64,000 bases of DNA from Cyanidioschyzon merolae. Lineage: Eukaryota. The notes under the pieces were generated by a model that saw only the letters and a program-made list of their open reading frames with translations, ran no database searches and was not told the DNA's origin. Shown piece by piece: positions 9,061 through 64,000 of the stretch. The position numbers were made by a program, and so were the translations under genes. The stretch lies in NCBI GenBank assembly GCA_000091205.1, contig AP006495.2; one strand, written 5' to 3'. Position 1 is the first letter of the stretch. Each line of letters starts with the position of its first letter.

Positions 9061-9189
9061 GAGTCCTCGAACTCGCGTCCTCAAAGCCATTTCGCTGCTC
9101 TGTCAGCTCTCACTTATTTTCTATATCCTAAGCGCTGCGCTACCCTCTCCCCGTCAAGACCTTCTAAGTTGTACACCCTAGATCACCTC

Positions 9190-27974: not shown

Positions 27975-28789
27975 GTTTCCCCTTCACTGACTTGCCGGAT
28001 TGCATTATCATCATTGAAGGCAAGGCCTCCGCGGAGCAATATTTGAAACGCCATCTGCAGCATCCTCAAGGATGCTACTGCTAGTGATTCCGTCATGGGG
28101 GGCGCTGCCAGCTTTCCGGTAGCTGTGATGCCTGCAACTTTGCTGGTACTCTGTTCCCTTGATGCATGATTGGAGCGAATCTTCGGTTTGTGTACGTTAG
28201 CGAGCATGATGAGATGCCACGTGCACTGCGCCTGCGTCGGTTTCATGTTATGTGGAGGCTTTGAGGATCAGAATGGATGTGACGGCCATGAAAGCAAATG
28301 TGGCATCCTAGAATTGCGATGGAACGCAAAAGAAACGATGCCTAGTGCTGACCTCCCAAAGAGGAAACGGCAGAGGATGCTGGCAGCTCCTTTGCGATGG
28401 TGCCAGACCTTGATGGACATTTGATCCACGGGTTATCCCTACCTAGTGATAAACGACTTGTCCGTGCCAGTGGAACGAAGACTCCAGCGTGCTTGTATAC
28501 GTTTCATAATCTTTCACCTACATTGTGTTCCGGCCCTAGGTGGGTGTAATCAAATGCTTTTTCGAGGTTTATAGCAGATTCGCTCGAAAGGCGTTCTTTT
28601 TCAGAAATCGAAAATCTACAAAATGGTTTGGACGTGGAAATTGGGGGTCCCGGAGTTCCGTTGTCCCCGAGTTCAACAAAAAAAGGAAAAAATCCTCTTC
28701 TCGCCAACCTCGCAGCGAAGAAGAGCATGTTACGAAGATGAAGATTGTGACGAGACTGTAGTGGGACAGAGGGTACGAGTTCGAGGAAT

Positions 28790-29060
28790 TCTCCCACTAC
28801 TGTGTTCAACTGGCGGGAAGAAACGCAACGAGTTTGTGAACCGGGACTTCAATGCCGCCATGAATATCAGACGATGCACGGCGAAGCCGAGACCCGACCA
28901 GCCCACGCGAGCCAACTCTGTTGGGCAGCCTCTCAGGCTCGACGCGCAAAAGTAGAAGCTGAGGGCGATTGCAGGGGGCCCGCCAAGAACGGCTGGGAGG
29001 CGTTTGTGACTGGATATCCATTTACCCTACAGCTGCGAAACTTTTTCGCTCCGTTGAGCT
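28790..29060 (+). mobile_element. solo Fanzor 3' fragment
   Basis: Translation reads GGKKRNEFVNRDFNAAMNIRRCTAKPRPDQPTRANSVGQPLRLDAQK, followed by a tail containing ggctgggaggcgtttg. It overlaps the antisense strand of the 3' end of the TMEM53-like gene region. Confidence 0.6.
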
Positions 29061-29257
29061 TGCAGACCCTGCGCATCCCAACTGGACTCGAACCTAATAT
29101 CGATGTATCCAGAAAGATTAGGGGCGCATTAAAAGTACAGAAGAAACGCTCGTCCATGCAGAAACGTCGCGGAGGATCGCCCTAGTCGCATTCTGCAACG
29201 TGGCCGAGTAATCTGGTCGGAGATATTGCCCTGTTGTCTCTGGATTTGCAGCAATCT

Positions 29258-30661
29258 TCATTTTGCTGCTGCTGGTGCTGCTGTTATCGAAGTCGGATTA
29301 GCCTTCGACTCGGAATCGCCGGTCGCCTCATGCAGTTTGTCGAGCATGCCGCGCATGCCGACCTCAACATCACTCAAAGCTCGCTTCAAAAAGCTCTCCA
29401 CTTGTGCCTTGTACTCTTCGGGATGCACTTTGAAATGTGTGGCATGTTGGCTCTGTTCCCAAACTTTTTGGTAGACCTCCAGCCCCCGACGTCTCTGAGC
29501 ATCGATGTACTCACGCACGCTCTTGTCAAGGTCTTTCACAATGCTGTCATCGAGGCTGTAGAGGTAGAGTTGCGGAACGGATGGGAGTTGCACGTTTTGC
29601 AGGGCGTGTTCCGCTGCCCGGAAACCCTCAGCAACATTCAGAAATCGAAACAGAGCTTCCGCAACAGCATTCCAGACACGGTACCCCACTTTTGGACAGG
29701 CTGCATAGAGACCTTGGGCTAGAGAACTCGCCTGCATGTGTCCTGGTCCCGAATCGAATATCACTCCTCGGATCTGCCGCTGGAGTTTTCGACCCATATC
29801 CTCTGTGACGTACTGGCCCCGCTGAATGATGTCTAGCATATAGCCGTAGATTCCTGTGCCAATAGAAAACGAATGGACCACTATCGGTCTATTTTCAGGG
29901 ATTTCGTCCATTAAATGTAGCACACGCAGTGCTTGTCGTCGCGAGAAGGCCGGAATCAACGCCGTCTGGAGACCATTAAACAACGTGATCACATCGTAGC
30001 CACGGTCTCTGTACCACTCTGCGTATTTCACCATATGTCGCTGCTGTGCACCGAGCCACGACAACAAAATAACAACGGGTCGTTGCGAGTCGCCAACAAA
30101 GGCTGCTGCATCTACGACGGAGCCCGCAACGTGCCTCCTCGTATGCGGATTTTCATTGAATTGCGTCGCCAGTAGTACCGTCCCGAACAGAGAAGCACGG
30201 AGACATTCCGGGTTTGTGTCACCTAGTCTTCGCCAGATACAGAAGAGCAAGGCCCCCAGTTGCGTCAGAAGCGAGAGTGGTCCATTCTCGTCGTTCCCGT
30301 CTGGTCTTTCGTTACGACCTCGGCCGCCGTCGCTACCACCGCCGCCGCCGCTGTGGCCACTGTTGCCGCCGTATCCTCCACCACATAAACTTGCTAACGG
30401 GCTCTCAGTCCCAGATGCGGATCCTTGCGTCCACACTTTCGGGTTAAACGGCAAAGAAGCACGTTTTCGCTCTAGCACAGTGCAGAGGGCGTGACTCCGA
30501 GGTTCTTCAGCAGAACGTTGTACGACGTGACAGCGCGGAAGCGTTGCAAAGCTCGTTCCTGACCTCGCTCGCCGAACACTGGTGCAGTTCCTCCTCCTAA
30601 TCAAAAACTTCTCTGAAGATACAGCCCCCGAAGGAGTGAATGCGACTCGCAAACACGCCAT
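29258..30661 (-). CDS. TMEM53/DUF829 family alpha/beta-hydrolase-fold protein
   Basis: PVVILLSWLGAQQRHMVKYAEWYRDRGYDVITL matches TMEM53 [28 protein letters not shown]. Also IRGVIFDSGPG, QLYLYSLDDSIV and HATHFKVHPEEY. Gly-rich N-terminal region. The first ATG is at 30661 (the track start 30709 is a TTG). Confidence 0.75.
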   Translation of the reverse strand: MACLRVAFTPSGAVSSEKFLIRRRNCTSVRRARSGTSFATLPRCHVVQRSAEEPRSHALCTVLERKRASLPFNPKVWTQGSASGTESPLASLCGGGYGGNSGHSGGGGGSDGGRGRNERPDGNDENGPLSLLTQLGALLFCIWRRLGDTNPECLRASLFGTVLLATQFNENPHTRRHVAGSVVDAAAFVGDSQRPVVILLSWLGAQQRHMVKYAEWYRDRGYDVITLFNGLQTALIPAFSRRQALRVLHLMDEIPENRPIVVHSFSIGTGIYGYMLDIIQRGQYVTEDMGRKLQRQIRGVIFDSGPGHMQASSLAQGLYAACPKVGYRVWNAVAEALFRFLNVAEGFRAAEHALQNVQLPSVPQLYLYSLDDSIVKDLDKSVREYIDAQRRRGLEVYQKVWEQSQHATHFKVHPEEYKAQVESFLKRALSDVEVGMRGMLDKLHEATGDSESKANPTSITAAPAAAK

Positions 30662-31799
30662 TCGCACAAAGACCTCGGCTTTCACGGAACAGAGCACTGT
30701 CGCTGTCAACCAGACGAACTAGTTACGTTAACCGCAAAAACCAATGTCTCTGAGTAATAACCCTCGATACTTCTAAGGAAACTTCTAAGAATCCCTAATT
30801 AACAGTGTGACAAAGCGCTCCTGGTGCGCGAGTTACGTCTCTGCGTCACTATTCCCACGAGTTTTTCCGTATGAGTTCAAGCACTTACTCACAAATGCGT
30901 ATTGGAACGCGCGCACGGCGGTGAATGGTGCCGCGCACCTCCGGTCGCGTGCGTGCCTCGCCAGCCAGTCCGCAGGGATATAAAGTTTCTATACATACAT
31001 GTTTATACAAGATCTCGCACCCTCGAGAGACGCCGATCACTCTTGGAAGTTATGGGTATGTATGATCATGATTAATGTCGAGCATACGCTCTGCGAGCCT
31101 GCTGCCTCTGTCGGCTCGACGCTGGCGGGTGCATCGCAGATGCTAGGGCCGCGAGTCTGGAATACACGCTCCTGCCGCGTGTCGCACTGAAATGGAACGC
31201 TGGACTGCTCGCTCCGTTCCTGCAAATAGGTTTCTTCCGAGTTGTTTCTCGTTGTTCAGGCTCGATATTCTTAGTGCAATATTGAGGGTTTATTACTTTC
31301 ATAGATGATTTTAGAAATACCAGTAGGCTTTCGATTTGGCTCCAGTGGCGCTTTCCCGCTGGAATCCGCTACATCTCTGTGATGTAAATGATTCGCGACG
31401 CTCCCGAACCAGTGCTCAAAAAATAACGGATATCGTTGTTTTATGCATAAATACATGCTCCGACTCTTCTCCTTTACTTACATATACGATGACTCAATCA
31501 CGTATTCTTCAATTTCACGATCTTTCCGTTCGAGGCATGTGATGGGCGCAGCGATCCGCGGTGCAGGATCGACAAAGAGAAAACTCGATGTCGAGCTTCA
31601 GGACTAGTTCATGGGCTCGTGTCCAAAGTTCACTGAACGTCTGACGTCAGAGAATCGATTTTCTCGAAAAAATTATCCTCCGCTCTTTGCGGTCATCGAC
31701 GAACCTGCCTTCGACAACAGTATGATTCATCCGAGGGGATATGCTCCAAAAGGCTCCCGTCCCCTCAGTTCCATCGGGAAAGAGTCTTGGACTTGGACT

Positions 31800-32110
31800 T
31801 GAGTCACCAATCGCAAAATCGTTGCAGAGCTAATTGCCCTGTAATGCTTCGTGGAACGAAAAATGTCCAACGACCATGGAGGGTACATGTATCTACCCTC
31901 TCGCAGACGCTTCCCAGCTTGTATTCGACCTGCCCCCAACTATCGGCTTCAGCTTCCCTTTGTCCGCTTGGAGCCTGAGAGGCCATCCCCCGAAGTTGGC
32001 TCGCGTCAGCTCCTCGGGTTTCGTCTTCGGCACGGCACACCGTCTTTTATTGATGGCGGTGTTGAAATCTCAGTTCATGAACTCCATGTGTTACCTGCTG
32101 ATGGTTGAAC
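31800..32110 (-). mobile_element. solo Fanzor 3' fragment (degenerate)
   Basis: The plus strand is antisense to the Fanzor C-terminus (antisense ORF LPFVRLEPERPSPEVGSRQLLGF... mirrors those of other copies). The tail motif gcagacgcttcccagc...cgacc is near 31886-31910. Confidence 0.5.
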
Positions 32111-32989
32111 CCATCAGTGCTTAGATTGCTAGAACTCGCGCCCTCGGCGCCACTAAAGTCTCGTCATCGCCCCGTCGCGCAGAAAGCTTTTTCTCCGATC
32201 TCCCCTTCTTCTTCTTTACTGGCTCATCTGCTATTGATGATCGGCGAGAAGAGGATTTTTTCGTTGTTTACCAGCAGTAGGCGGCAATGACGGCACTCCG
32301 GAATCCCCCACTTCCATGGCCAAACATTTCCTTTAGATTTCCTATTTCTTCAAATGAACGCGCTTCGAACAAATCTCCCGTAAACTGCGAAAAAGCATTC
32401 AATAGCATCCACATGGGGTGGAACATAATTAAGGTACTCCAAACCTAGACTGTTGCGCCTGGGCGTGAGCAGCCTGCGAACAATTTTACGCTGAGTTATC
32501 TGTTAAAGTCTTGGACTGATCCTGTGTGAAAGATAGTTGGTTTCAGAGCTTGCTGCGGTACGAAGATCGTGACCGAAAGTCAGGAAGGTTTGCGTTAGTC
32601 GCTTCGGCGTTTCACAGTACCCTTGATAAACGTTGGGCTGTGTCGAGGTATGCAATCGTAAGCGTTCCTGTTCAGCACCTCTGGAGCACCTGTTTTGGAT
32701 TTGGTCTCAGCCAGTAGGAGCTCTCGCAAAACCACAGAGTTGAGCGACCATAATTTAATGTGAGTTGCGGGAGCCGTAGTTTTCGTCCGCAAAATTGCCA
32801 TCAACCACGAACGACGCACTCGCTTAGGACCTCTTTTGTGTAGACTGGACAACAGCATCAAAGCTTGGGAATAAGGTTGTGCTGTATCCGGTCGAAAAAG
32901 TGCACGGCGGCGTCTCCGAAACGGCCACCAGGTTGCCTCCTTTCGTGAAAACTCTCGGACTCGCCGGGCATAACACCGAAAGAGGATCT

Positions 32990-39282: not shown

Positions 39283-39560
39283 CCGCACACCAACAACGCC
39301 GTTCGAAAGTCGAACGACGTCGGGCGTGTACAGAAGTGGCGAGTGACCCGCCCTAGACAAGAAGTCGCCATCTGTGGCGCAGACGCCTCCCAGCCCTTTT
39401 GGACCGGCCACCTACTATTGCTTCCAACCCTGTCTCATATATTTCAACTTTTAGAGGTTGTCCAATGAAGTTGTCTCTCGTCAACTCTGGAGGTCTCTTC
39501 TCCAGCACCGCACATCTCCTTATATTGATTGCGGCATTAAAGTCTCTGTTAACAAATTCC
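39283..39560 (-). ncRNA. candidate omega-RNA/right-end region of Fanzor copy B
   Basis: The last ~150 nt of coding sequence plus ~100 nt of non-coding tail are conserved in every copy and fragment. Antisense consensus is cagtagtggcg...gcgccctagac...ctgatgtgcagatgc...ttttctcgaccggcc. By analogy with TnpB/Fanzor this is where the guide RNA scaffold is encoded. Not shown to be transcribed. Confidence 0.35.
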
Positions 39561-41782
39561 GTACGTTTCTTGCCATCATTGGTTGTACACACTAATGCAA
39601 GCAGCCCTCGCACTTTCGCCCTCGTTTCCATTTGCTCCTCCATCAGCGGTCTGTACTTTGCTATTTCCTCAGGGCTCCTCTGGCACTTTTCCATTTCGAC
39701 CCTCTGAAGTGTGCACCCCAGCTCGTGGTGTGTATAGGACGTTCGGAACTCGTCTACAGGTATCGTAACGAAACGCCTTGCGCACTCCTTGTACACCCTC
39801 GTCGTTGGAGCTGGCGTAGTGCCGTTCTTGGGCGCCCAGCGCCCTGCCCCATACGTTACTACGAGCCTCTGACTTTCATTCTACTCGAGGGCGCTCAATT
39901 GATTAAAAAAATTCGCGAACGCCCGCTGCTTTTCACAGTAGAGATTCATTCGCAACCGAGCCCACCGGGGCTTGGTGTACTCCTCCCACAGCGCATCCCA
40001 ATGCGCAACGCGAACTTCCATGCATTCCCGAAAAGCTCGAAAGTCCGCTCCGCGGCTCGTCACCTCGCTCAAAGCTTCCAGGTGATCCTTCATTCCTGCT
40101 CTCCATGCCTCGATTTTCTTCCTTGCATTCATGATTCCCGATTCTCGATAGTACCTCGCTCTCGAGAATCTCAAAAGACGCATATCTTTCTGACGTAAGT
40201 TACCGTCAGTCCCATCTTCCGTACGCTTCGGTGCTGCGATGGTTATGATATTCGTATTCCCGGGGTCCGCGCCAAGGACAAAGTCGTTATCTTGCACTTT
40301 CTGGGTCGCAAGATCCGCCTCCTTCTTTTCTTCATGCTTCGCCGCGCTAACGACAATGTGGTTATCCTCCATCTCCTGCGTCGCAGAATCCGCCTCCTTC
40401 TTTTCTTCATGCTTCGTCACGTCAACGACAAAGTCGTTCTCATGCACTTTTTGCGTCGCAGGACCCACCTCCTTCTTTTCTTCATGCTTCGCCTCGTCAA
40501 CGACAAAGTCGTTATCCTCCACCTCCTGCATCGCAGGATCCTCCTCTTTGTTTTCTTCATCTTTCGTCACGGGCGCAGCTGAGGGAGGGACTGACCGATC
40601 TTTCTTCAACCGCCGATAGTGTACACACAAGGCTACTCCATCGGTTTCGATCATCCCAGTGAACAACTTTTGCTCGCTCACTCTCAGACGTTTGAAATTG
40701 AAGATATTCTTCCAGTACGTCTTCCGGTTTTCGCCGGTGAAGTCCTCCCTGCTAACAATGAACTCCGGACTGATCTCCTTCATGATGTCGTGAAGGACTG
40801 CGGAGTCGATAGTCACAAAATGTGACTTGATATTGTACAATGGAACCGCGTTGAAGCGCTTACCCATTAGGAAGGCCTTCCGTCTCTCCCACTGTTCATT
40901 TGTCTCTTCACTCAGCTTCATCTCTACTTTGCGTTCGAGTTCACGGTCCAGAAACACAACTTAGCGCAGGACGAGGCGGTAGTATCTTTCCTTATCTTTT
41001 TTCAGCTCTGATATCTTGTCTGTTGGATTCGCCAGACCCAAAACTGCACGGTGCTCTTCTACAACTGCACGGATTACAGAATCCTAATTTGTGCTCCTGC
41101 GTGACGCCTTCTTGTCGACAAATTCGAACTCATCTTCACACTGTCGATTGTTCGTGATGCCATTGATAATCGTCCATATCCCCTTGCGAGAGACGCCGGG
41201 ATAGAGTGCAAACACGTCGCGTATCATGAAACGTTCGTGGTTCATCGTCAATTGGTTCTTCAGGTTCGTAATGTACTTCATTGCCCCGTATGTGTAAATA
41301 TTTCCGTCACCGCAGTATCGATTACCCTCGAAGCAGAATTCCGCGAAGTTTTCGTGGAGGACTTCCACCCGCTCATTTTCCCTCCGCGCTTCCTCTGTAC
41401 CAAGCATCAGCTGACGAATAAAGGTCTTATCGAAAAACTCGTCCGGAATCTCGACCGTTTCCATGTTCGTCACGTCGCGATACATCTCCCTCGCTAGATG
41501 CATCAGTCCTGACGACGCCTTGAAAATACTCTTGGAGTACGAATCGAAACGTTTTTCGAATGCGTCTCGCATCTTTTCCCTGTAGTGATCCTTGATATGT
41601 TTAAGAAGACCGGCTTTCGCCACCATCTCGTCGTACAGTTGTCTTTCTTGCCGCCTTAGACGTTGAGCCTCCCCCTTTCGGTTCTTCTTCTCTTCCTTTT
41701 CTTCTGGACTCGGTACTGTTTTTTGTTTTTTTCTGGCAGCCGGCGACCCTGGACCTCCAGGATCGTCGATTTGCTTTTTCAT
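39353..41782 (-). pseudogene. Fanzor-like RNA-guided RuvC nuclease homolog, interrupted by stops and a frameshift (copy B)
   Basis: Three consecutive ORFs align colinearly to copies A and C. Catalytic D (RuvC-I), E (RuvC-II) and D (RuvC-III) motifs are all present in this copy. Confidence 0.75.
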
Positions 41783-42756
41783 AGCTTTCCTATTTTAGTT
41801 TTTTTGAAAAAGAATGCTCTTTGAACCCTTGTGTTACATACAGCGAAAAACACTTGACTAGACTTGTTTGAGGGCTGAAACAGAAACGAGCTGAAAGACT
41901 GTACTTGGCTACCACCTCAACGGATATCCGACTTTTTACAGCTGAACAACACGCTCCTGGTCAGCATCGCGTTTCCCTTCAACGGCGGCATGTGCATCGC
42001 GTCAGTTGACTGCCTGATCTCCGAGATGCGTTCATTAAGCGCAATGCGTCCACCGCACGAGACGCCACTCCGATCGATGAAGGACACGTGTCCGACACCC
42101 CGCATTGGCACATGCGTGTTCGCATCGCATTGCAGCCAAACTAAAGTATCGAAAATAGGAAACTCATGTAGAACGATCTCTTGCTATAGACTCTGTCGCT
42201 GGTGCCGAAGCTACTGCCCATCGCAGTACCGCCTTGACATACATGGAAATGTTGGGACCTGACGCGATACCTCGCGATGCTTCTATCAAAAGCATAGCGT
42301 TCTCTGCGGCTTACCGTTGTGTGGATGACGTATGCATCACTCTTCTCAAAAGGAATTTCGTTAGTTTTATTCATCGTAACCAAACTAGGTACGGTGGGAT
42401 TCCTGAACACGGACATACGTTTAATGCCGATGCTTGTCATGCATGCTGCACTGACGCTGGAATGAGGAACTGACCTGAATTATGCTTCTATCCTGCGTCA
42501 TAGGCTGGTACTGGTGACCGTTCAAGTCATTTCCATGCTATCGTCGTAGCCAACTTATGGTGCCCGCTACGTTCCCCGGATCCGGTGATCATGGTAGAGG
42601 CACACCACACATGTAGCGTCCATATCTGCCAAGACGTTCGAGCCTTGCATCTCGGCTGACACGATCGAGGAACCCGACAAAAGCACATACTGTATTCTGG
42701 TCTACTCCATAAGATTAGCTTCAAGAGCCTAACCCGTACATCGACGACCGCACACG

Positions 42757-43126
42757 CACACAAAACGCCGTTCCAAGTCGAAAGACGGCAGTGTACAGTA
42801 GTGGCGGCGAACGCGCCCTAGACAAAACGTCTCCAACTGATGTGCAGATGCTTCCTAGTTTTTCTCGACCAGTCCCCTGCTATCGGTTTCAGTTTCTCCA
42901 CGTTCACTTGGGCCTGGAGAAGCTGTCCCACAAAGTTGGTTCGCTTCAGCTCTGCGGGTCCCTTCTTCTGCACCGCAAAGCCCCATATATCAATAGCAGC
43001 ATTGAGGTCTCGCTCCACGATCCCCAAGCCTTTATTGATGCTGCTTGGACCGACCAGTGCAAGTCGTCCTCGAACTCGTGCCCTCTGTGCCAATTCCTTC
43101 TTTATCAGGTCTCCGTGTTTTTCCAT
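42757..43126 (-). mobile_element. solo Fanzor 3' fragment, part of composite repeat (ii)
   Basis: ORF 42818..43126 reads ...RARVRGRLALVGPSSINKGLGIVERDLNAAIDIWGFAV.... A well-conserved tail (cagtagtggcggcgaacgcgccctagac...ttttctcgacc) lies at 42757-42900. Confidence 0.65.
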
Positions 43127-43176
43127 CGCCGAAACGCCCCGCTGGCTCTTCTTAAAGTCGACGTTCTGAAACGTAC

Positions 43177-44135
43177 ATCCCAGCTTACATTTCCCGTGAA
43201 TTTTTCATTTCCTCAGAATGAACGCACTTCTTCGCGCCTCTAGGCGACGACCTGCCCGGAGACAGACGGACCTGCGGATGGACGACGATATGTGCCCCGG
43301 TGCGTTACATTGCGGTGCACGCTTCAGCGATTCGCCATGTGCAGCGATCATCACGTTTCACGAAAGGAAACACTCCTTCGATGCGGCTCAACCATGGACT
43401 GTACGAAGCAATGGAAAGCAGCGCTACCCCGATAGAATCGGCAAAGCCCGGGCGCGACGGGAAATAGTGCATTGGCGTATTGTCCTATATAAAAGGATAC
43501 GGCCAGGCGTCAGGGGGTGTGTCTTGAATGACTCGACGAAGTGGCTGGTGCTCTTGTATGAGCCTTCTGCAACAGCGAAACGGAGACCTCGAAATGAGTC
43601 CGCTGCAGCTGGAATAGATGATGATTTCCGAACTCTCCTTGAGTTTGGTGTTAGATATGAAGGGCGCCCTGTATGCGGATGCCCATGTACGATCCGGCTG
43701 TTTCGCGCGAAGGAGGTCTCGCCGGCTGAGCAACCGAACAGAAGCCCCTACGCCGCATACCGGCGGAGACGTTCCAGGAACTCTGCCGTTGCGATTTATG
43801 CGGAAGACAGGCATGAATGAAACAGGACTCTTTTTTGCGACTGTGTCGCAATGTCTCCAGGGCCGCACGAACGAGATGTCGACAAACAAAGACGACCGTG
43901 GTGGCTGCTATCGTCGCTTTTGGTTTCCGCAGAGTGCCTGTTGGGGCGCTTTTCTACGATTGACCGAAAACTTGCTTTAAGAATATCTGTTTACGCCGCG
44001 GAGCGAATGCACACTATTCCAGCGTTTCTCAACCATGTGAGTTCTGTGGTATGAGTGACCTGAAGAAAGAATGCAGTACACCTTGCACTGTTCAGAAACG
44101 ATATATACCCTACAGGCAACTCATCTATAATCTAT
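43177..44135 (+). repeat. ~950-bp 'MNALLRAS' repeat unit (copy 1), near-identical to 62899-63840
   Basis: Direct comparison of the two stretches shows >97% identity with one small indel near 43510. Its ORFs are not preserved between copies, so it is probably non-coding. Confidence 0.8.
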
Positions 44136-45625
44136 GCGGCACACAGCATAGTGATTTCGATATACCGCAATACATTCCAGCAAGGGCGAAACAAAGTTGA
44201 GATGAAAGACTACAAGCCAGGTGTACAAAATCTCAAGTTTTGGTCGCTTCCCACTGTCATCTGCAGAAGCCTTTGATGGCTTTTTATGCGTCTTCTTCGG
44301 TAATCACCGAGCCGAAGTCGGCTTTTAACTTTTCTGGTCTTTACTTTGCCTCCAGATTCGATATAGGCCAGCGAGGATTGTTGACGACGGCGTTCAAGAA
44401 CCTATTTTGGCGCCTCTCGCTGTTGCCAAGGCATACCATTCCATGACGGAGGTTGCCATCCAGCCTTCCCTTGCCATATTCGTCTTCTCTGCATGCAGGC
44501 TAGCTTATTCCTTGATAATGATACCACTTGGCTGTGGTAAGTGGTCCCATAAATTCACTACACCTCCTCTGCCTTCTGAGTACGACCCTGCGTCGCGTGA
44601 ACGCTTGTTCCGTCGCTCATTGCACGCCCATGACAGGTACTAATGGCTTTCCCCGATATCGTCCTCCGTCTCTGCGCCCGATACAGTACTGTGCAATCAG
44701 GGGCTACTTCTCGAGGATCTCCTCGGCGATTACTCTGTGAACTGACCGCGCAAGCGCACTGTCCCGTCCGATTTAGCATTTTGTAGAACGCGATGCTGCC
44801 CCTAACGAAAAACATACCATACACGAATCCGGTCTAGAGAACAAGTCGATTATTTTCATTCCGTCTACGCTTCCTTTGCGCAAAGTGATGACGGAATTTG
44901 TACATGAAGCGATTGCTGTGATGATTCTGGCCAGAAACTAGGACGTTTTCAATGCGGACAAAGGAGCCTGGAGATTCTGGTAACATATGCCATGAAAGGA
45001 ATCATGCTGGAGCCGAATACCATGTCGTCGACATTGACGGAGAAAGGGGGGTTTTATTTCGAACTAGATCGATTGTTAGACGTGAGAAAGTCATTGAGCT
45101 TTTGGATTAAGCGTATGTAGAAATCGTCAATGGACGACGTCAAATTTCTTTCTCTGTGAATCCAGCGGCGTGCATTGCTGTGCCCAAGCATTGCCTTGAA
45201 ACGGAAAGATGGAAAAATTGAAGTACGCAGGATTTGAACATGTTACATGGAAGGACGGGAGAAGACTGAAGGCCTGTCCGAATGGAATGGATTGTGATAA
45301 CGGGTATTTTTGAGCATTTGCTCAAAGGCGTCGCGAATAATTTTGTTTCAGATGAAGTGACGAATCCCGGCATCGAAGAGTCGACGGAATCTCTCTGCAA
45401 ACTCTAAGAAGACTCCTAAAACTAAGTATGAGCCTGTAAGCTTTTGTTGCTGGGCGTCGAATGCCGACGCGGCACAGAAATTCGGAATAAAAATCGAAAG
45501 GCAGGAGCGCAGCGAACAGTACAATGCTCCATTCGAACTGAATACGTTTTGGACAACAGATCCGGTGTTGTTCAGTGGCCACGGTTTGTATTTTTTGTGT
45601 GTCGATCCCTCGCCGGCGTAGCAAA

Positions 45626-48790: not shown

Positions 48791-49530
48791 GTTCCATGGG
48801 ATGTCGGACTCTGGGCACGCGATGCTGTCCGTGGTGAACCAAGCAACGGAAGGAGAATCCAGACGGGAGATCAAACCGTAAAATTCCGACCCGTCTGCGC
48901 TCTCTTCATGCAAAGCTGTGACTCCCTCTACGGGTTGCTATCGTGGCGATGGCTCAGGGCCGAGCCCAGACCCTTCTCCCTCGAAAACAGAAGCGATAGA
49001 AGGCTTCGGGAGCGTACGACGCCAGAAGTGTCATGCTGCTGAGGAATGCCGCGTGGTCGTTGGCAACAAAGAGAGGTACGTTTGTGGTTCGAATAGAATC
49101 GATGACTCGACGTGACATGGTTAGTGAACTTTCGCCGTGAGCTTGTGAAGGACTTGGCGGGAGGCGAAGTCGACTTTTTGCCGTCGTCAAACGACTAGAG
49201 CGAATCACAGCGCCACGAGTTGCTTCGCGACTGATAGATCGAAAATTGGAAGAACGCGTGCTTTGAGCACGCTACGAGTACGGAGCTGAGAAGGGTTGAG
49301 GCTTCTGATTGTGGGATGAAGTATGGTACAGCTTATTTTGCTAAGCTTTTCTCGAGGGCGTCGCGAATGCTTTTTACGAGAGTGGAAGAATGAATGCCCT
49401 TCTGCGAGAGTCAGAAGAGCGACCAGGAAGATACAACCGAGAATCCTAGAACTACGCATGGATCCTAGGAAGACCAGTACTGCTACATGTCGAATGTGCA
49501 GTCTATACATTTGCAAAAGTTCGGAAAACA

Positions 49531-51066
49531 ATGAGAAATCCAGGAATAGAGGACATGGATCAGAATACCCTTTTACTGGACACATGTATGGCATCTCCGC
49601 GGCTCATGCGCCATACGGTCGCTTTGCAGAACGCATCTGAATCGACATCGCGGCGACGATTTTGCTGCACAGCTTATCGTGCGGTGCACCAGCTCCGTCT
49701 GCCGCTGACGGTCGCGTTGACGTGTTTGCAGGCTGGTGCCGGTGCTTGTGACTGTACCTGTGCAGGCGTGGACTGCACTCGTTTCTACAAGGGTTGTGGT
49801 GCTTTTATCCGATATCGCGAAAGATACTCTGAGAGCGTTGCTATTGTTTTCGTATTAGGATTTCGTCCGAGTTGCAGCCAGAGAAATGGCGCTCTGAACA
49901 ACGAGGCCGGCGAGCGTTTTATGTTTCTCCAAAGGCCGTCTTCGAAAGTTTTATTCACGTGCTCTACCGCTGCAGTCGCAGATGGACGCAGCAGGCTGTC
50001 CGCCAAGCGGACCAACCGAGCCACCTGTTGTTCGAAGCGAGGGAACACTGCAGTGTGGTGCCTGCAGTCTGCAGAGCCCCCAGCGTTGGCGCCCTCTGGA
50101 GGAGTCTTCTTTGCACCGGCGAAACTGAAACTTTTTGCCGGCAGTTCGAATAAAGAGTTAGCTTTTGGCGTGGCGCGATATCTTGGCAAAGAGGGGCCTG
50201 ATGAGCTAATTTGTAAAAATTTCGCCGACGGGGAAAAATACGTGCGCCTCGTCCAAAGCGTGCGGGGTTGCAACGTCTTCATCCTGCAGTCGACGTGCCA
50301 GCCGGTCAATGAGAACCTCATCGAGCTCTTGCTTATGATAGATGCGTGTCGTCGAGCCCATGCGTTTCAAATCATTGCGGTCATCCCGTATTCCGCGTAT
50401 GCTCGAGCTGATCGGATCTTTGATCTGGATTCGAAGCGCCGGGAGGCACTCACATCCAAACTTGTAGCGAATTTGATCTGTGAAAGCGGCGCGGACCGTG
50501 TGATTCTCGTAGACATTCATTCGCCGCAATCATGCGGCTTTTTTGACATTCCCGTGGAACACATTTATGCGTCACCTGTTTTGGTTGACTATGTACAAAC
50601 ATGCCTCGAAAATCTTGGAAATATCATCATTGTTTCACCAGACATAGGTGGAGTTGCCCGCGCCAGAGCATACGCAAAAGCACTTGGCGATGCTCCTTTG
50701 GCGATCGTGGATAAACGTCGCGACAGCAGAACAAAGCATGAAGTCATGAATCTTGTTGGCGATGTCGCGGGTAAGGTAGCAATTGTGGTGGATGACATGA
50801 TCGATACTGCTGCAACCGTCTACTCTGCGGGACAGCTTTTGAGGTCGAGTGGTGCTGCCAAGGTCTTGACGCTCGCCACACATGCCGTGTTCAGCGAGGT
50901 GGCGCTCAAACGCGTGTCTTCAGGCCTTTTCGAAGAGGTGATAGTCACAGATACTGTACCGGTGCCGCCAGAGAAACAGTTTCCACAGCTCCGCGTTGTT
51001 AGCTGTGCGAACCTGATTGGAGAGGCAATATGGAGGGTGCACGAGGAGACTGCGCATGCCCTGTGA
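49531..51066 (+). CDS. PRPS: ribose-phosphate pyrophosphokinase (PRPP synthetase) with a ~190-aa N-terminal extension
   Basis: The catalytic domain from about 50119 reads LKLFAGSSNKELAFGVARYLG...VIPYSAYARADR...IVVDDMIDTAATV...VTDTVPV, colinear with PRPS1. ATG at 49531. The true start may be an internal Met. The extension could be an organellar targeting sequence. Confidence 0.88.
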   Translation: MRNPGIEDMDQNTLLLDTCMASPRLMRHTVALQNASESTSRRRFCCTAYRAVHQLRLPLTVALTCLQAGAGACDCTCAGVDCTRFYKGCGAFIRYRERYSESVAIVFVLGFRPSCSQRNGALNNEAGERFMFLQRPSSKVLFTCSTAAVADGRSRLSAKRTNRATCCSKRGNTAVWCLQSAEPPALAPSGGVFFAPAKLKLFAGSSNKELAFGVARYLGKEGPDELICKNFADGEKYVRLVQSVRGCNVFILQSTCQPVNENLIELLLMIDACRRAHAFQIIAVIPYSAYARADRIFDLDSKRREALTSKLVANLICESGADRVILVDIHSPQSCGFFDIPVEHIYASPVLVDYVQTCLENLGNIIIVSPDIGGVARARAYAKALGDAPLAIVDKRRDSRTKHEVMNLVGDVAGKVAIVVDDMIDTAATVYSAGQLLRSSGAAKVLTLATHAVFSEVALKRVSSGLFEEVIVTDTVPVPPEKQFPQLRVVSCANLIGEAIWRVHEETAHAL

Positions 51067-51974: not shown

Positions 51975-54625
51975 ACACCGCAAAACGCCTTTCAAAAGAC
52001 AAAAGCTGTCGCCGGCAGTGCACAGCAGTGGCGAGTGACCCGCCCTGGACAAGACCTCTCAACTAATCTGCAGACGCCTTCCAGCTTTTCTCGACCGGCA
52101 ACCTACCAGTGATTCCAACTTTTTCTCATATACTTCCACCTTCAGAGATTGTTCCACAAAATTCCCTTTTGTCGGCCCGGGAGGTCTCTTTTCCATCACC
52201 GCACATCTACGTATACTGAAAGCGGCGTTAAAGTCTCGGTTCACGAATTCCATGCGTTTCTTCCCGTCCGTCCGACTCACTAGTGCGAGTCGCTCACGAA
52301 CTTTCGCCCTCCTTTCCATTTGCTCCTCCGTCAGCGGTCCGTACTTTTTTATTTCTTCAGGGTTCCGCTGGCACTTTTCCATCTCGGCCCTCTGAAGTGT
52401 ACAGCCCAGTTTATGGTGTGTATACGATTTTCGGAACACATCTATCGGTATCGTAACGAAACACCGTGCATACTCTTTGTAGGGTCTTTTCGCTGGAGCT
52501 GGCATAGTGCCTTTCTTGGGCGCCCATCGTCCTGCTCCGAATGCCACTACGAGCCTCTGACTGTCATCCTCCTTCAAGGCGCTCAACTCGTTGAAAAAAT
52601 TCGCGAATGCACGCTTCCTCCCACAATACATGTTCAGTCGCAGACGAGCCTACATGGGCTTCGAATACTCCTTCCACAGCGCATCCCAATGAGCAACGCG
52701 AACTTCCATGAACTCCCGAAAAGCTTTAAAGTTCGCTCCGCGGCTACTAGCCTCGCTCATAGCTTCCAGGTGATCCTTCACTCCTGGATTCCACTTCTCA
52801 AATTTCTTCCTCTCATTCATCATACCGGATTCTCGGTAGTATCTCGCTCTCGAGAATCTCAAAAGACGCATATCTTTCTGACGTAAGTTACCGTCAGTCC
52901 CATCTTCCGCACGCTTGGGCACAGCGACGGCTATAAAATTCGTGTTTCCAGGGTCAGCGCCAAAGACAAAGTCGTCCTCATGCACTTTTTGCGTCGCAGG
53001 ACCCGCCTCCTTCTTTTCTTCGTGCTTCGCCTCGTCAACGACAAAGTCGTTATCCTCCACCTCCTGCATCGCAGGATCCTCCTCTTTGTTTTCTTCATCC
53101 TTCGTCACGGGCGCAGCTGAGGGAGGGACTGACCGATCTTTCTTCAACCGCCGATAGTGTACACACAAGGCTACTCCATCGGTTTCGATCATCCCAGTGA
53201 ACAACTTTTGCTCGCTCACTCTCAGACGTTTGAAATTGAAGATATTCTTCCAGTACGTCTTCCGGTTTTCGCCGGTGAAGTCCTCCCTGCTAACATTGAA
53301 CTCAGGACTGATCTCCTTCATGATGCCGTAGAGGACGCCGGAGCCGATAGTCACAAAATGTGACTTGATATTGTACAATGGAACCGCGTTGAAGCGCTTA
53401 CCCATCCGGAAGGCCTTCCGTCTCTCCCACTGTTCATTTGTCTCTTCACTCAGCTTCATCTCCGCTTTGCGTTCGAGTTCACGGTCCAGAAACACAACTT
53501 AGCGCATGACGAGGCGGTAGTATCTTTCCTTATCTTTTTTCAGCTCTGATATCTTGTCTGTTGGATTCGCCAGACCCAAAACTGCACGGTGCTCTTCTAC
53601 AACCGCACGGATTACAGAATCCTAATTTGTGCTCCTGCGTGACGCCTTCTTGTCGACAAATTCGACCTCATCTTCACACTGTCGATTGTTCGTGATGCCA
53701 TTGATAATCGCCTATATTCCTTTGCGAGAGATGCCCGGGTAGAGTGCAAACACGTCGCGTATCATGAAACGTTCGTGGTTCATCGTCAATTGGTTCTTCA
53801 GGTTCGTAATGTACTTCATTACCCCGTATGTGTAAATATTTCCGTCACCGCAGTATCGATTACCCTCGAAGCAGAATTCCGCGAAGTTTTCGTGGAGGAC
53901 TTCCACCCGCTCATTTTCCTCCCGCGCTTCCGCTGTACTAAGCATCAGCTGACGAATAAACGTCTTGTCGAAAAACTCGTCAGGAACATCGACTGTTTCC
54001 ATGTGCGTCACGTCGCGATACATCTCCCTCGCTAGATGCATCAGTCCTAAAGAAGCCTCAGGAAAACTCATGGAGTCCAACTCGCAACAGTTTCTGATGG
54101 ACTCCCGCAATTTTTGCTTTTACGAATTCTTGCTATGTCCGAGAAGACAGGCTTTCACGACCATCTCGTCGTACAGTCGTCTTTCTTGCAGCCATTAACG
54201 TAGGGCCTCCCCCTTCTGCTTCTTCGTCTTGTCTCGTTCCTCTATGTTTGGCTCTATGTATCGTTTTTTTCGCCAGCCAGCGATACTGGCCCTCCAGGGT
54301 CCTCCACGTCGCTGTCCAGAACATTGGTTTTTTATTTTTTGAAATAGAACGCACTATGAACGTCTCTGCTCTAAACCACGAAAAATACTCGAATACTCTT
54401 ATTTGAGGGTTGAAACACAACTGAAATAGAAGCCGTACTTGGCTACGACCTGACCGGAAATCCAACTTTTACATTACGGCCACACGCCAGAGATTAAGAT
54501 CACGTTTCCTTTCAACGGCGACATGCGCGTCGTGTCTCATGTCTGCCTGATCTCCCGGGTGCGCTCACCAAGCGCAATGCGTGCACCGCGCGAGACGCTG
54601 CACCAATCGATAAAGGCCTAAGATC
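51975..54625 (-). mobile_element. Fanzor/TnpB-like element, copy C (pseudogene)
   Basis: ORFs 53712..54110, 52650..53495 and 52059..52631. RuvC-I FGADPGNTNFIAV. RuvC-II is degraded to IPIDVFRKS (E to V). RuvC-III is degraded to RDFNAAFSI. Two TGG-to-TAG nonsense changes (about 52645 and 53700). It shares the same TAG/TAA in-frame stops as copy B (53500-53640). Two acidic repeat units. Confidence 0.8.
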
Positions 54626-57574: not shown

Positions 57575-58090
57575 CGCTTACACCGCTGGCAAACGCCTTT
57601 CAAAAGTCGAAAGCAGTCGTCAGCAGTGCACAGTAGTGGCGGCAAACGCGCCCTGGACAAAACGTCTTCAGCTGAACTGCCGAAGCCTCACTGTCTCTCT
57701 CGACCGGCCACCTACAACTGGCTTCAACTTCATTCCGTACAATTCGACCATGGAAGGCTGCCACACAAAGCTGGCTCCTGTCAGCTCCTCGAATCGCTTC
57801 TCCAGCACCGCGCATCGTCTGATATTGATAGAAGCATTAAAGTCTGGGTTCACAAACTCCATGCGCTTCTTGCCCCCGTTGGTTGTACCCACCAGTGCGA
57901 GGAGTCCTCGAACTTTCGCCCTCATTTCCATCTGCTCTTCCGTCAACGGTCTGTACTTTTCTATATCCTCAGGGATTGGCTGAAACTGCTCTATCTTGAC
58001 CCTCCGGGACGTACACCGCAGCTCGTGGTGTATATATGATGTTTGGAGCTCATGTATCGGTATTGTGACGAAGCATCGTTCGCAATCCTT
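57575..58090 (-). mobile_element. solo Fanzor 3' fragment (longest; includes the RuvC-II region)
   Basis: ORF 57668..57946 reads ...RAKVRGLLALVGTTNGGKKRMEFVNPDFNASINIRRCAVLEKR. 57950-58090 aligns to the copy A DEFRTS region. A conserved tail (gcctttcaaaagtcgaaagc...cagtagtggcggcaaacgcgccctggac) lies at 57575-57700. Confidence 0.65.
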
Positions 58091-58719
58091 GTACGCTCAT
58101 TCCGAGTCGCTGTTAACCGGAAACGATATTCTCCTCGAAAAGCCATGAAAGTGGTGCTGTGGCTTTCCGCCAGACACGGTGGCTGCTTTTGCCGTGCCCA
58201 TGGCCCTGCAGGCGTGTTTCAGGGTGCGCTGACTGCACAAAAGCGCCGAGTTCGCGCTGCTGCCCTAGCATCTGGGTGCTGGCAGCTCCACAGCACAGAT
58301 ATCTCATGATGTGCGGGTGGAGCATGCTGCTTCAGCACCGTAAGAACGACGCGCTCTCATGCGCGTTCCCCCATGATCCAAGATGTAATCCATAGAGTGA
58401 TACTGGCGGCTATCACCGAGCGTCTTGCATATAGAATGCAAATCTGGGAACTGCATCCTAGGGCTCGGAGTTCCATGTCACGAACAGTGCATATGCTCAA
58501 GATCGGTGCTCGAAGCGAACGCGCTGTACACCATACACTGCATTGCTGCACGAGAACAGTGCTATGCTCGGGGCCGGATAGAGTACCTTACGAAAAGTCA
58601 GCAGGAACGTCGCTTTCAGGTACGGTGCGTGACACGGGCCAGGCGAGAGCGATCCGTTTGCCCCTCACTTCGGAATGCGAATTCGCTGTTCATGAGTGTC
58701 TTCCCGTAGTAATGCCTCT

Positions 58720-59010
58720 TTACTTCAGTTCAGAGGCGCGCCTGTTCGAGTTGGTTTTGCGCTTGCGTTCGAGCTTTTTGCCGATTCTATCGTGGAGTAG
58801 ACCTGCTTTTTATTCCTCCTTGTACTCCGTGATTCACGCCCATCAAAGACGTATTTTCTATTGTGAAACGTAATGATCGCAGCACTGGGCGAATCGCTGA
58901 AGCGTTCTGCACAATCACGTCGGAGCATACGTCGTCGTTCTTCAGCAAGTCTTTCTCCCTCCGGCCAGATCGTCGACTACGGGCATTCAGAAGTGCGTCC
59001 ATTTGACGAA
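58720..59010 (-). repeat. partial 'MNALLRAS' repeat unit (inverted), adjacent to Fanzor fragment 59270-59520
   Basis: Minus-strand ORFs encode MDALLNARSRRSGRREKDL... and ...CAERFSDSPSAAIITFHNRKYVFD, homologous to the start of units 43177 and 62899. Confidence 0.5.
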
Positions 59011-59269
59011 ATAGAAAATCCGTGCGAAAGGTATGGACATGAAATCTAGGGATTCCGGAGGGCTGTCATTGCCAGGCACCGGGAAAATGGAAATAATCCC
59101 CTTCTCGTCGACCACTGAGCGAAGAAGAGCAAGTGACGACGACGACAAAGAAGAGAATAGATAGGCGAGAAAAGATGCATGCCCGACGAGACGCAGGCGA
59201 TTCTTGAGTAGCACAGAGGGCGCGAGCTCTTAGAATCTTCGCATAGATGAATTCAGTCAGCGGCAATAA

Positions 59270-59520
59270 ATGAAAGGTATTCGTGAACCGAGACTTCAAC
59301 GCCGCCATCAACATCAGGTGATATCTGGTGTCCAGGACGAGACCCGAGGATCTGAGGCGATCCAGCTTTGTGGGGCAGCCTCTCAGACTCGAATTGCAGA
59401 AGGAGGAGCTGAAACCGATAGCAGAGGGGCTGTCTAAAACGGGCTTGGAGGTGTTTGTGAGTGGATATTGATTTATCATGCATCGCTGCCGAACGTTTGT
59501 AGTTTCACGGACGATGGGCA
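59270..59520 (+). mobile_element. solo Fanzor 3' fragment
   Basis: 59274-59320 reads VFVNRDFNAAINIR then a stop. Next comes ...SSFVGQPLRLELQKEELKPIAEGLSKTGLEVFVSGY and the tail gggcttggaggtgtttgtg. Confidence 0.6.
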
Positions 59521-61083: not shown

Positions 61084-62462
61084 TCATCCGCTCGTTCCTT
61101 GACTTGCGGCAAATTATAGAGCCATATTCCAAATAAGAGCACGCCTAAACCGAGCAGGACCATAAACGAAAAACGAGACTGGACCAGCAGCGGTACTGGC
61201 AGGCAGAAAACTAGCGTTGTTAGCGGCACAGAAATCAACGATGCAACCACGGAGTCGAGAGCGGATGCGATTTTCAGCAATCGCAAACCCGTGATGTTGA
61301 ATACAATATTCACAGCAACGTACGCAAGAGCTAGCCACGGCATCCAACTGCTCTCACGCCCCGCAAATGTGCTGAGTGCACTAGAAAAGTAATCGCCAAT
61401 GGAGGGGCTTTCAGCCAAGCGAGCTGCAAAAGGTGTTGTGAAAGGCAGCATGAGCGAGATAGCAGCAAACTGCATGAGGCTCGAAAAAGTATTGACAATG
61501 AACAGATCCGGTTGCACGCCACTTCGTTTGAAAACGCGCTCTTTGAGTACAACGGCTAAGGCAACGAATGCGTAGGATCCGAAGAATAAAAACGCATTCA
61601 TCCATACGCCTCCCGAAGAGAGATTCAAAGCTGCTTCGTTCACAGTTTGAGGGCCAATGGAAATCAGCACACCGGCGAGGACAACAAGCATGCCATAAAT
61701 TTGGGTGAGCGTGTAGCGACGACCTAGCAGAGCATACGAGGCCAAGGCAATGAATATGAGGATTCCTTGATTCAGTACTGGAAGCAGAGCACCGGGAAGC
61801 CGAGAAGCAGTAAACATACCGATTACGAAAGTAAGCGCCTCCAGTGCCCCAATGAGGGCGAACAGACGCCAGTTATTCACTGCCCACTTGACCTGCGTCA
61901 TAGGGACAATACGCATGCGCACTCGTATCCAGAGAATAGAGGCATAAACCAGCACGTAGCACAAGGTGACAAAAAGTGAGAGGAAAAATGTGTACGAATA
62001 CATTATCTGCAAGTCCATCCGGTAAACTACGCGGTTCAAGACCGATAACGCCACGTACGCTGCAGTGGTCAACAGCACGTCAGACGACACCCGCGTCGCT
62101 ATTCTACCACCCGTTTTTGCAGTTTTATTCTGCTGCATGAGCAAAGAGGCTTTCCGCATTTCAACGGGTCTACTTCGGGGTGCAGTAAAGCGGGGTCCAG
62201 GCTCCACGGGGCACCCCGCAAACGTTACTCGTGCCCTAGCGCCAGTCGAGCGGAAGGCTTGGTAAAGCCGACTGACAGGCGCTTTATTTACCTCCGCTGG
62301 ACTAGCAACATGATTTCTACGGGCAAAGGGGTTAGACTTTATGGAGTGAGCGGAACAAAACTGTGATATCCATCCACTGTTGGTGAACATTGCATGCTCA
62401 TCTTTGCCACCAGAACGAAAAATTTGCCACCGCCGGGTAAATTCATGCTCGCGCGCAGACAT
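61080..62462 (-). CDS. CRT-like transporter (PfCRT/CLT family, DMT superfamily), ~10 TM
   Basis: [11 protein letters not shown] resembles Pf[80 protein letters not shown] resembles [72 protein letters not shown]...NTFSSLMQF...LPF resembles REIVFKKYKI...NAMVSFFQLF...LPV. ATG at 62462 lies inside Fanzor-derived sequence, so the start is uncertain (alternatives at 62393 or 62156). The 3' end overlaps the uL3 stop by 4 bp. Confidence 0.65.
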
Positions 62463-62764
62463 CTGCTAGCCTCTCTCGACTGGCTACCTGCTACAGGATT
62501 CAGTTTCTTTTTGTACATTTCTACCCTGAGAGATTGCCCCACGAAGTTGGCTCTTGTCAGCTCTGCGGGTCTCTTCTTCAGCACCGCACATCTCTCGATA
62601 TTGATAGCAGCATTAAAGTCTCGTTTCGCGTACTCCTGGCGTGCATAGTCGTTGGTTGAAGTCATCTCTCCAGGAATTTCTGGTAATCGTTCCCTCTGTA
62701 CCACGTTAGTAATGTCATCGCCCCGTCGGTCAAAAGAGTCTTCTCGGCTGTCTCCCTTTTTCAT
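62345..62764 (-). mobile_element. solo Fanzor 3' fragment, part of composite repeat (iii)
   Basis: ORF 62339..62764 reads ...YARQEYAKRDFNAAINIERCAVLKKRPAELTRANFVGQSLRVEMYKKKLNPVAG. The tail motif gcagacatctgctagcctctctcgactggc is at 62455-62490. The fragment overlaps the 5' end of the CRT-like ORF. Confidence 0.6.
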
Positions 62765-62898
62765 ATTCTTCTTCTACGTCATCGTCACTTGCTCTTCTTT
62801 GCTTGATGGTCTTCGAGACGAGAAATTTTTCATTTTCTTTCGAGGCCGGAGATGACGGCCCTCCAGGATCTTCGAATTCCATGTGCTAACGTTTCCCA

Positions 62899-63840: not shown

Positions 63841-64000
63841 GAACGCATTATACAGTGACGTCGAAGACCTTCTGCAAACTTCAGCTGGGATGGAACGAAA
63901 GTGCGTTGAAAGAGCATAAAAGGGTATTCTGATCCATGTCCTCTATTCCTGGATTTCTCATTGTTTTCCGAACTTTTGCAAATGTATAGACTGCACATTC

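Follow-up and report, generated by a model that had tools for sequence, protein, structure and literature searches.

Two-gene transposons in which a Mariner/Tc1 transposase is combined with a Fanzor1 protein have been described, for example PUl-1 from Pythium ultimum and PGv-1 (Bao & Jurka 2013, PMC3627910), and the same association was noted again in a 2023 survey (PMC10530073). For the red alga Cyanidioschyzon merolae, the Fanzor family CMe-1A was reported with ~150 copies that are about 80% identical to the consensus, without terminal inverted repeats (TIRs), with an unknown classification and with no mention of a transposase partner (Bao & Jurka 2013, PMC3627910). An association between Mariner/Tc1 and Fanzor1 is thus known in general, but the literature searched contained no link of CMe-1A to a transposase. 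Here we describe a composite repeat in a 64,000-nucleotide stretch of C. merolae DNA (contig AP006495.2 of assembly GCA_000091205.1; the whole stretch is called the window), one copy of which occupies positions 42757-44212. The composite joins a Fanzor 3' fragment to a unit of ~950 bp, and this unit, read in antisense, is a decayed IS630/Tc1-mariner transposase gene from the same transposon lineage as the Fanzor remnant. The whole composite is very probably a Fanzor-deleted, formerly autonomous derivative of a two-gene mariner-type transposon. It supplies a partner for the unclassified CMe-1A and places the red-alga Fanzors in the mariner-associated group, because the ends of CMe-1A are shared with the composite and because the transposases of relatives always precede a Fanzor of the same clade; a mariner-type transposase probably moved the Cyanidioschyzon Fanzor family.

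In elements of the PUl-1 type, as in this lineage, the transposase comes first and Fanzor1 second on the same strand, the transposases are homologous, and Fanzor-only derivatives exist alongside (PUl-4 there, CMe-1A here). Unlike PUl-1, which has clear 24-bp inverted repeats and TA duplications, the composite has asymmetric ends with no TIR or target-site duplication demonstrated; in addition, all copies here are dead and the main transposase-bearing form is without a Fanzor open reading frame (ORF). With CMe-1A the composite has in common the right end (RE), the Fanzor 3' part, the Fanzor 5' untranslated region (5'UTR) and a 32-nt left-end (LE) motif, whereas CMe-1A is without a transposase and has additional sequence at its 5' end (consensus nt 1-785, including TE-N2_CMe), and the composite lacks Fanzor nt ~970-2781. 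Internal-deletion derivatives such as Ds from Ac, or minis resembling miniature inverted-repeat transposable elements, likewise keep their ends, lose the coding interior and have a junction common to the subfamily, and elements of ~560 bp are the fully non-coding form here. However, it is the accessory gene and not the transposase that is deleted in the composite, and the main derivative would have stayed autonomous. The bacterial IS200/IS605 and IS607 TnpA-TnpB systems also combine a transposase with a TnpB-family RNA-guided nuclease and show a decay series to one gene or ends only, but the composite's transposase belongs to the DDE enzymes (IS630/Tc1 type) and is no Y1 or serine recombinase. 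In these bacterial systems the guide RNA is encoded at the 3' end of the nuclease gene or right end, and the corresponding omega RNA is only putative here.

Gene content, copies and anatomy of the composite

Self-comparison of the window, which has a G+C content of 53% and long ORFs without introns, yielded two repeat families, a Fanzor family of ~2.5-3.2 kb and the composite. When the region 42700-44250 was searched with nhmmer against the window, the whole composite was recovered at 62450-63919 (E=0) and at 8837-10222 (E=3e-146), and an inverted partial copy at 59448-58759 (E=1e-59). The recurrent arrangement noticed in a preliminary description of this DNA is therefore real and consists of three composites (c1, c2 and c3) and a truncated inverted one (c4; Table 1). 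The boundaries given there were misplaced, as the quoted start (tttcatttcc...) and end (...ctcatctat) of the unit are the edges of a near-identical tract and not of the repeat, and homology continues past both. In a four-way alignment of the window copies it runs unbroken from the Fanzor 3' part through the unit to ~80 bp past the former end point, reaching ~44212, ~63916 and ~10217 in c2, c3 and c1, respectively. Outside the near-identical tract, the window composites are only ~65% identical to one another.

The identity of the unit became apparent from a minus-strand majority consensus of 15 loci, which reads MYRIDRRRIA...VSHTTVLRWL... (helix-turn-helix), VDETSFGRNGRSVYGYSRRG (DETSF), LLLDNVAFHHS and PPYAPWFNPIEGVFSIVK (PPYAPWFNPIE). 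With three frame segments of its translation joined before the Pfam search, the 15-copy consensus was matched by DDE_3 (PF13358) at E=1.2e-23 (84 bits versus a cut-off of 28.6), and the consensus and the intact homologue P0028 alike show the catalytic spacing DD35E. The helix-turn-helix families HTH_Tnp_Tc3_2 (E=4.7e-4) and HTH_33 (E=3e-3) stayed under their Pfam cut-offs on the consensus, and the intact relative in contig L129 was similarly sub-threshold. A database search with the consensus returned 90 homologues, many of them intact DDE_3 proteins of 292-303 aa that are 40-51% identical and reach E-values down to 2e-72; the PUl-1 transposase is 31% identical (E=3e-14). Individual window copies of the transposase are disrupted by stops and frameshifts, and in c2 the tblastn matches are split between two frames, 43191-43835 and 43490-44101. 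Neither Pfam nor NCBIfam matched any single ORF of the unit or of a Fanzor copy, because the copies are too broken, and only the multi-copy consensus gave matches; a regular-expression search of the three window copies did not detect the catalytic motifs.

The earlier remark that the ORFs of the unit are not conserved between copies holds, since tblastx scores are alike in all six frames and stops occur throughout. Its placement of the unit on the strand opposite to the Fanzor fragment, however, rested on a spurious ORF; the sole recognizable gene of the unit, the transposase pseudogene, lies on the minus strand as the Fanzor remnant does (44149 to 43240 in c2). The 'MNALLRAS' ORF and its like in these repeats should not be annotated as genes. 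Two further candidate identities were rejected: a host gene, as the unit is present at 20 or more loci that are all decayed, and a diverged N-terminal part of a compact Fanzor, as the unit is a DDE transposase.

For the distribution of the composite outside the window, metagenome contigs were used. Since the window's RPL3 protein was also recovered from metagenome contigs, the organism is represented in the metagenome collection; the contigs come from the same or a close organism, and all metagenome copy counts describe a sample and are lower bounds. A scan with the 18-mer GCGATCATNACGTTTCAC, which is located inside the unit and conserved in four of four window copies, returned at least 120 metagenome stretches. 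Among the matches listed, the composite profile detected 29 full-length copies in these stretches, which represent 15 distinct loci with unrelated flanks and common ends; the c1 locus is present in four contigs. The loci that hold the unit fell into 19 sequence clusters equivalent to at least 20 loci, as c2 and c3 are fused by their identical tract. Seventeen of the 20 among the matches listed are composites, one has a full Fanzor, one an extra internal deletion, and one is truncated without a Fanzor part. The Fanzor 3' part is thus kept at 19 of 20 distinct unit loci, and the sample is unbiased in this respect since the search pattern sits within the unit. This co-occurrence bears out the earlier suggestion that the Fanzor 3' fragment and the unit form one recurrent mobile element.

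Along the composite consensus, the 32-nt LE motif (12-43, equal to CMe-1A 786-817) is followed by the transposase ORF (82 to ~985), by the Fanzor 5'UTR with the start codon and ~21 codons (994-1096, equal to CMe-1A 869-969), and by the Fanzor C-terminus with the third RuvC motif only (1119-1441, equal to CMe-1A 2782-3093), after which comes the RE. CMe-1A has ~50 bp in place of the ~950-bp transposase segment. The sequence tttcatttcctcagaatgaacgcac, formerly taken as the start of the unit, is the Fanzor 5'UTR in antisense, and the 'gap' of 50-140 bp formerly placed between the two parts is no spacer, as a deletion junction lies in it together with what is left of the Fanzor 5'UTR and start codon (CMe-1A 869-969). 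Two such junctions occur. At the alpha junction, where an ATG microhomology is present, CMe-1A ~905 in the region of the Fanzor start codon is joined to 2738; this junction is found in c1, c2 and, among the matches listed, five metagenome loci (L057, L015, L036, L030 and L032). The beta junction joins CMe-1A ~1070 to 2809, keeps about 55 Fanzor codons, and is found in c3, c4, seven metagenome loci among the matches listed and two mini elements of the window. Each junction is common to many loci with differing flanks, and therefore each deletion arose once and the deleted element then multiplied.

The Fanzor label itself is correct: alignment to the CMe-1A Fanzor1 consensus from the literature gives 82-88% for the full-length neighbours, along as much as 3169 bp, and 66-73% for the remnants in the composites (CMe-1A nt 2738/2809-3083/3140). 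As genomic copies were reported to be about 80% identical to this consensus, C. merolae or a close relative is the most likely source of the window. In c2 the remnant includes an ORF at 42818-43126 on the minus strand, matches CMe-1A 2740-3140 at 73% by blastn, and corresponds by tblastn to residues 661-752 of the Fanzor P0001. The full-length copies have a split RuvC triad (GADPGNTN, VDEFRTSY and NRDFNAAINI); the composite remnant retains the third motif only and therefore cannot be a nuclease. Close homologues of the full-length pseudogene A2 come from JGI (Joint Genome Institute) metagenomes and more distant ones bear a Cas12f1-like TNB domain; no PDB sequence was matched by the Fanzor pseudoprotein.

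Table 1. Coordinates of the composite copies, their parts and the related elements in the window
Feature	Position	Strand	Remarks
Composite copy c2	42757-44212	-	Alpha deletion type; type II (= CMe-1A-type) RE
c2 RE (Fanzor gene 3' untranslated end up to the element terminus)	42757-42817	-	CMe-1A type; CMe-1A consensus ~3095-3169
c2 Fanzor C-terminal remnant	42818-43185	-	CMe-1A nt 2740-3094; holds RuvC-III motif ERDLNAAIDI only
c2 alpha junction and Fanzor 5'UTR remnant	43186-43239	-	43201-43229 = CMe-1A 869-897
c2 decayed IS630/Tc1-mariner-type (DDE_3) transposase pseudogene	43240-44149	-	= 'MNALLRAS unit' in antisense
c2 LE	44150-44212	-	Ends ...GTTGAGATGAAAGACTA; conservation stops here in the 15-locus alignment; LE motif = CMe-1A 786-817
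Composite copy c1	8785-10217	-	Alpha type, type I RE; Fanzor remnant 8842-9185; transposase pseudogene ~9225-10133
Composite copy c3	62395-63916	-	Beta type, type I RE; transposase pseudogene ~62942-63853
c3 Fanzor parts	62452-62726; 62826-62931	-	C-terminal remnant; 5'UTR and first ~21 codons
Truncated composite c4, inverted relative to the others	58759-59505	+	Beta type; transposase residues ~233-327 at 58764-59046, then deleted Fanzor, RE
Near-identical tract of c2 and c3	43183-44135; 62885-63839		98.8-98.9% identical (98.9% over 951 bp); sharp edges within the element
Mini element without transposase	28506-29065	+	LE motif, Fanzor 5'UTR, beta junction, Fanzor C-terminal remnant, RE
Second mini element, inverted	31846-32456	-	Same structure
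A1, CMe-1A copy	2347-5521	-	Spans all 3169 bp of the published consensus at 82%; frameshifted
A2, full-length Fanzor pseudogene element without transposase	39297-42083	-	809-codon frame with 3 in-frame stops, 41782-39353
A3, CMe-1A pseudogene	51986-54616	-	
A4, CMe-1A 3' fragment	57594-58098	-	
CMe-1A sequence past the LE motif	41780-42083; 54317-54616; 4602-4867		

Two-gene copies and competing origins

The complete arrangement was found both in this lineage and in relatives. At one site recovered from two metagenomes (L054/L072), the transposase is followed after 77 bp by Fanzor residues 6-751, both genes being decayed. The genomic context was also inspected for seven intact transposase homologues, one of which lies on a contig that ended just past the gene. 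In six of the six informative foreign contigs (L124, L126, L129, L130, L132 and L133; G+C 33-58%), an intact ORF of 619-798 aa follows 30-330 bp downstream on the same strand; the one in L126/L127, of 546 aa, is cut by the contig end. All six downstream ORFs are homologous to the CMe-1A Fanzor (E=0 and 0, at 42-43% identity, 3e-98, 5e-83, 2e-82 and 3e-11), and the transposase-Fanzor pair is therefore a conserved module. These ORFs have no confident Pfam annotation, and two of them show faint or weak precomputed matches to PF26935 (DUF8286). In L129 the two arms of a perfect 14-bp inverted repeat, TGAATAATGAAACA, enclose the gene pair at distances of 26 bp from the transposase start and 175 bp from the Fanzor stop (chance expectation estimated at about 6e-4), and the pair in L124 has repeated TTACACT motifs at both ends. 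Neighbouring genes encode ERCC4, RNase III and a DNA methylase in L124, and a 2OG-Fe oxygenase, a peptidase M11 and a kinase in L126; contexts of this type may be viral or algal.

The ancestor was very probably an IS630/Tc1/mariner cut-and-paste element with a gene for a ~300-aa DD35E transposase, about 50 bp and then Fanzor1 (a TnpB-like RuvC nuclease) on one strand, the element ends lying outside both genes. At least twice (alpha and beta), an internal deletion would have taken most of the Fanzor frame, with the transposase, the LE, the final 290-360 bp of the Fanzor gene and the RE staying in place. Each deleted form would have spread to many loci, presumably by means of its own transposase, and point mutations and frameshifts would later have decayed all copies. 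CMe-1A would then be the reciprocal, transposase-deleted derivative, and the ~560-bp minis would be derivatives in which both genes were lost. The direction of change thus appears to be deletion rather than gain. The resulting series (both genes, transposase only, Fanzor only, neither) may be used to ask what a Fanzor transposon needs in cis, and is otherwise ordinary transposon decay.

Several observations weigh against this derivation. An intact transposase occurs in no window copy and in none of the sampled metagenome loci, transposase activity is suggested by the copy distribution only, and variation among copies is almost without codon-position bias (a weak signal that was not used as evidence), so that selection on the transposase during its spread is not demonstrated. 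The lone two-gene copy L054/L072 is itself decayed, and it might in principle be a beta-type composite that underwent conversion with a CMe-1A copy as donor. Inverted-repeat searches found no TIRs in the window copies, and TA target-site duplications were not demonstrated for the composite/CMe-1A family, the copies being too diverged and no empty site being available. Furthermore, CMe-1A copies extend for ~135-190 bp of conserved sequence past the LE motif, where all composites end. As to the ends themselves, in the alignment of 15 loci the right end reads, in window orientation, ...GGGGTGAAACAAAA.TGAGTTGAAAGACT.TA, and the left end reaches ~55 bp past the profile and is of two types. The consensus ends share only CAGT and, 12-16 nt on, GTTTCAC, in inverted orientation. 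The sole exactly defined junction is that of the c3 LE, where ...GAAAGAGCA is followed by TAAAAGG at 63916/63917, with TA next to the terminus; this junction and the shared end pattern are the only features that hint at TIRs and TA duplications in the family.

Other origins of the composite were nevertheless judged far less probable than deletion from a two-gene transposon. An unrelated non-autonomous element may have captured the Fanzor right end/omega-RNA region by recombination or transduction; the preliminary description had proposed a chimeric non-autonomous element that captured this region. The composite does look chimeric in DNA, blastn detects no similarity between the unit and the full-length Fanzor copies, and the two RE types on composites suggest exchange between lineages. 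Capture is very unlikely all the same, as the unit encodes a transposase and is thus the formerly autonomous part, the Fanzor 5'UTR, start codon and LE motif are also kept and in CMe-1A order, which fits deletion better, and two-gene parents exist in the form of the copy described above and the intact paired relatives. Even less credible is a nested insertion, the second earlier proposal, in which an independent IS630/mariner transposon would insert preferentially into Fanzor (CMe-1A) elements. The patch is indeed rich in transposons, composites lie near Fanzor copies (c2 is 670 bp from A2, c4 660 bp from A4), and CMe-1A itself is without a transposase. However, the Fanzor 5'UTR remnant lies ~10 bp from the transposase stop codon, which leaves no room for the end of a separate element, and there is no second pair of ends. 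Each of the two junctions is also present in identical form at 7-8 unrelated loci, gene order and spacing are the same in the six intact foreign pairs, and the outer ends are in common with CMe-1A. Chance association or a local segmental duplication within the 64-kb window, which the presence of four copies in one window might suggest, can practically be dismissed in view of at least 15 full-length composite loci with unrelated flanks in metagenome contigs and of the only ~65% identity of the window copies outside the tract.

The near-identical tract in two copies

The tract that is common to c2 and c3 (Table 1) lies in the same orientation at two positions 19.7 kb apart, and the next most similar copy is only 68% identical to it. 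Where the same alignment of c2 and c3 leaves the tract, identity drops abruptly, to 55% across the Fanzor sequence and right end and to 53% over the final 80 bp of the left end, and the two copies differ in type (c2 alpha with a CMe-1A-type RE, c3 beta with a type I RE). Since these flanks, which still belong to the element, are no more than 53-55% identical, there was no recent copying of the entire element. The earlier figure of >97% identity is therefore upheld and slightly exceeded, whereas its interpretation as a very recent duplication or mobilization does not stand, the tract being internal to two old, diverged copies of different deletion subtypes. We favor, with some reserve, the explanation that sequence from one old copy replaced the corresponding internal segment in the other, most likely through ectopic gene conversion, which would be an event later than and separate from the deletions. 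Mismatches cluster near the left edge of the tract, and the alleles at 43216 and 43235 are swapped between the two loci in metagenome contigs as compared with the window, as conversion would give. On the other hand, gene conversion is mechanistically awkward with flanks that are only ~55-67% identical.

A near-identical repeat of ~950 bp would also be expected from a young insertion or a collapsed assembly, and a very recent transposition or duplication of the unit, or an artefact of assembly or polishing, has to be considered. The short contig L037 bridges the c2 left flank to the c3 right flank via the tract (as compared with window positions 42352-44135 and 62885-64000), and is either an assembly chimera or a recombinant; as a chimera it would show that assemblers are confused by the tract. 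In addition, the junction between the tract and the c2 right-hand sequence was in no independent metagenome contig. Recent copying is contradicted by the position of both tract edges inside the element, by the low identity of the Fanzor part and of the last 80 bp, and by the different deletion subtypes of c2 and c3, and an artefact by the independent assemblies, which reproduce three of the four tract junctions, namely c3-left (L001-L003), c2-left (L037) and c3-right (L111). Together with the mismatch cluster and the swapped alleles, these data make recent copying or artefact unlikely, and overwriting of an internal segment remains the better explanation. For assemblies of this genome, the tract is a warning of chimeras such as the one that L037 may represent.

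The retained Fanzor 3' segment and other features of the window

Deleted forms, both alpha and beta and including the minis without transposase, always retain the last 290-430 bp of the Fanzor gene together with the RE, which is far more sequence than a repeat bound by the transposase would require. The window had no match in Rfam and none in a tRNA scan, and RNAalifold found no consensus structure on 12 right ends. Type I right ends contain two short hairpins (GGGTA...TACCC and GAAAC...GTTTC), the stems of which differ between copies; the RE type of c2 is also found in the full-length Fanzor copies and in loci L015 and L032. In alignment-free folding, the 21 type I ends had a mean z of about -1 and the 13 CMe-1A-type ends one of about +0.4, both being hand averages of per-sequence values, so that the folding excess is modest for type I ends and the CMe-1A-type ends show no excess structure. 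The retained 3' segment might be a putative omega-RNA gene that is needed in cis, with the Fanzor-less copies acting as guide-RNA satellites that use the CMe-1A Fanzor in trans for homing or retention after excision and rely on their own transposase, although we regard this possibility as a doubtful one. If it were true, the derivatives of a single transposon would divide the labour three ways, and the internal conversion tract could be a by-product of the repair of nuclease-induced breaks.

For the Fanzor family itself, the consensus part nt 8-257 of CMe-1A has been equated with a separate repeat, TE-N2_CMe (Bao & Jurka 2013, PMC3627910), and a lone fragment at 16380-16634 of the window matches this part. 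Among the three long Fanzor copies, only A1 has the 5' part (4867-5521), and A2 and A3 begin at consensus nt ~650-660. Just ahead of the RuvC-I motif GADPG, A2 also contains a tandem array (40267-40571) whose unit, HEEKKEAD.ATQ.V.DNDFVV, measures 75 bp (25 aa); there are three to four units as against one in the CMe-1A consensus, and the metagenome homologue P0001 is expanded as well.

The host genes of the window encode a mitochondrial carrier, Spc7/Knl1, TFIIF-beta, SNF2, a RETICULATA-like protein, PRPP (phosphoribosyl pyrophosphate) synthetase, RPL3 and a CRT-like transporter. A host DUF829 gene on the minus strand (29258-30709) stands between the two minis (~560-600 bp), which are inverted relative to each other. 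The window closes with 84 bases (63917-64000) that begin right at the c3 LE terminus and are the exact reverse complement of 49492-49575. In contig L111 the inverted copy continues at least to the equivalent of 48909, and an inverted duplication of at least 667 bp, which takes in the region upstream of the PRPP synthetase gene, therefore abuts the transposon end.

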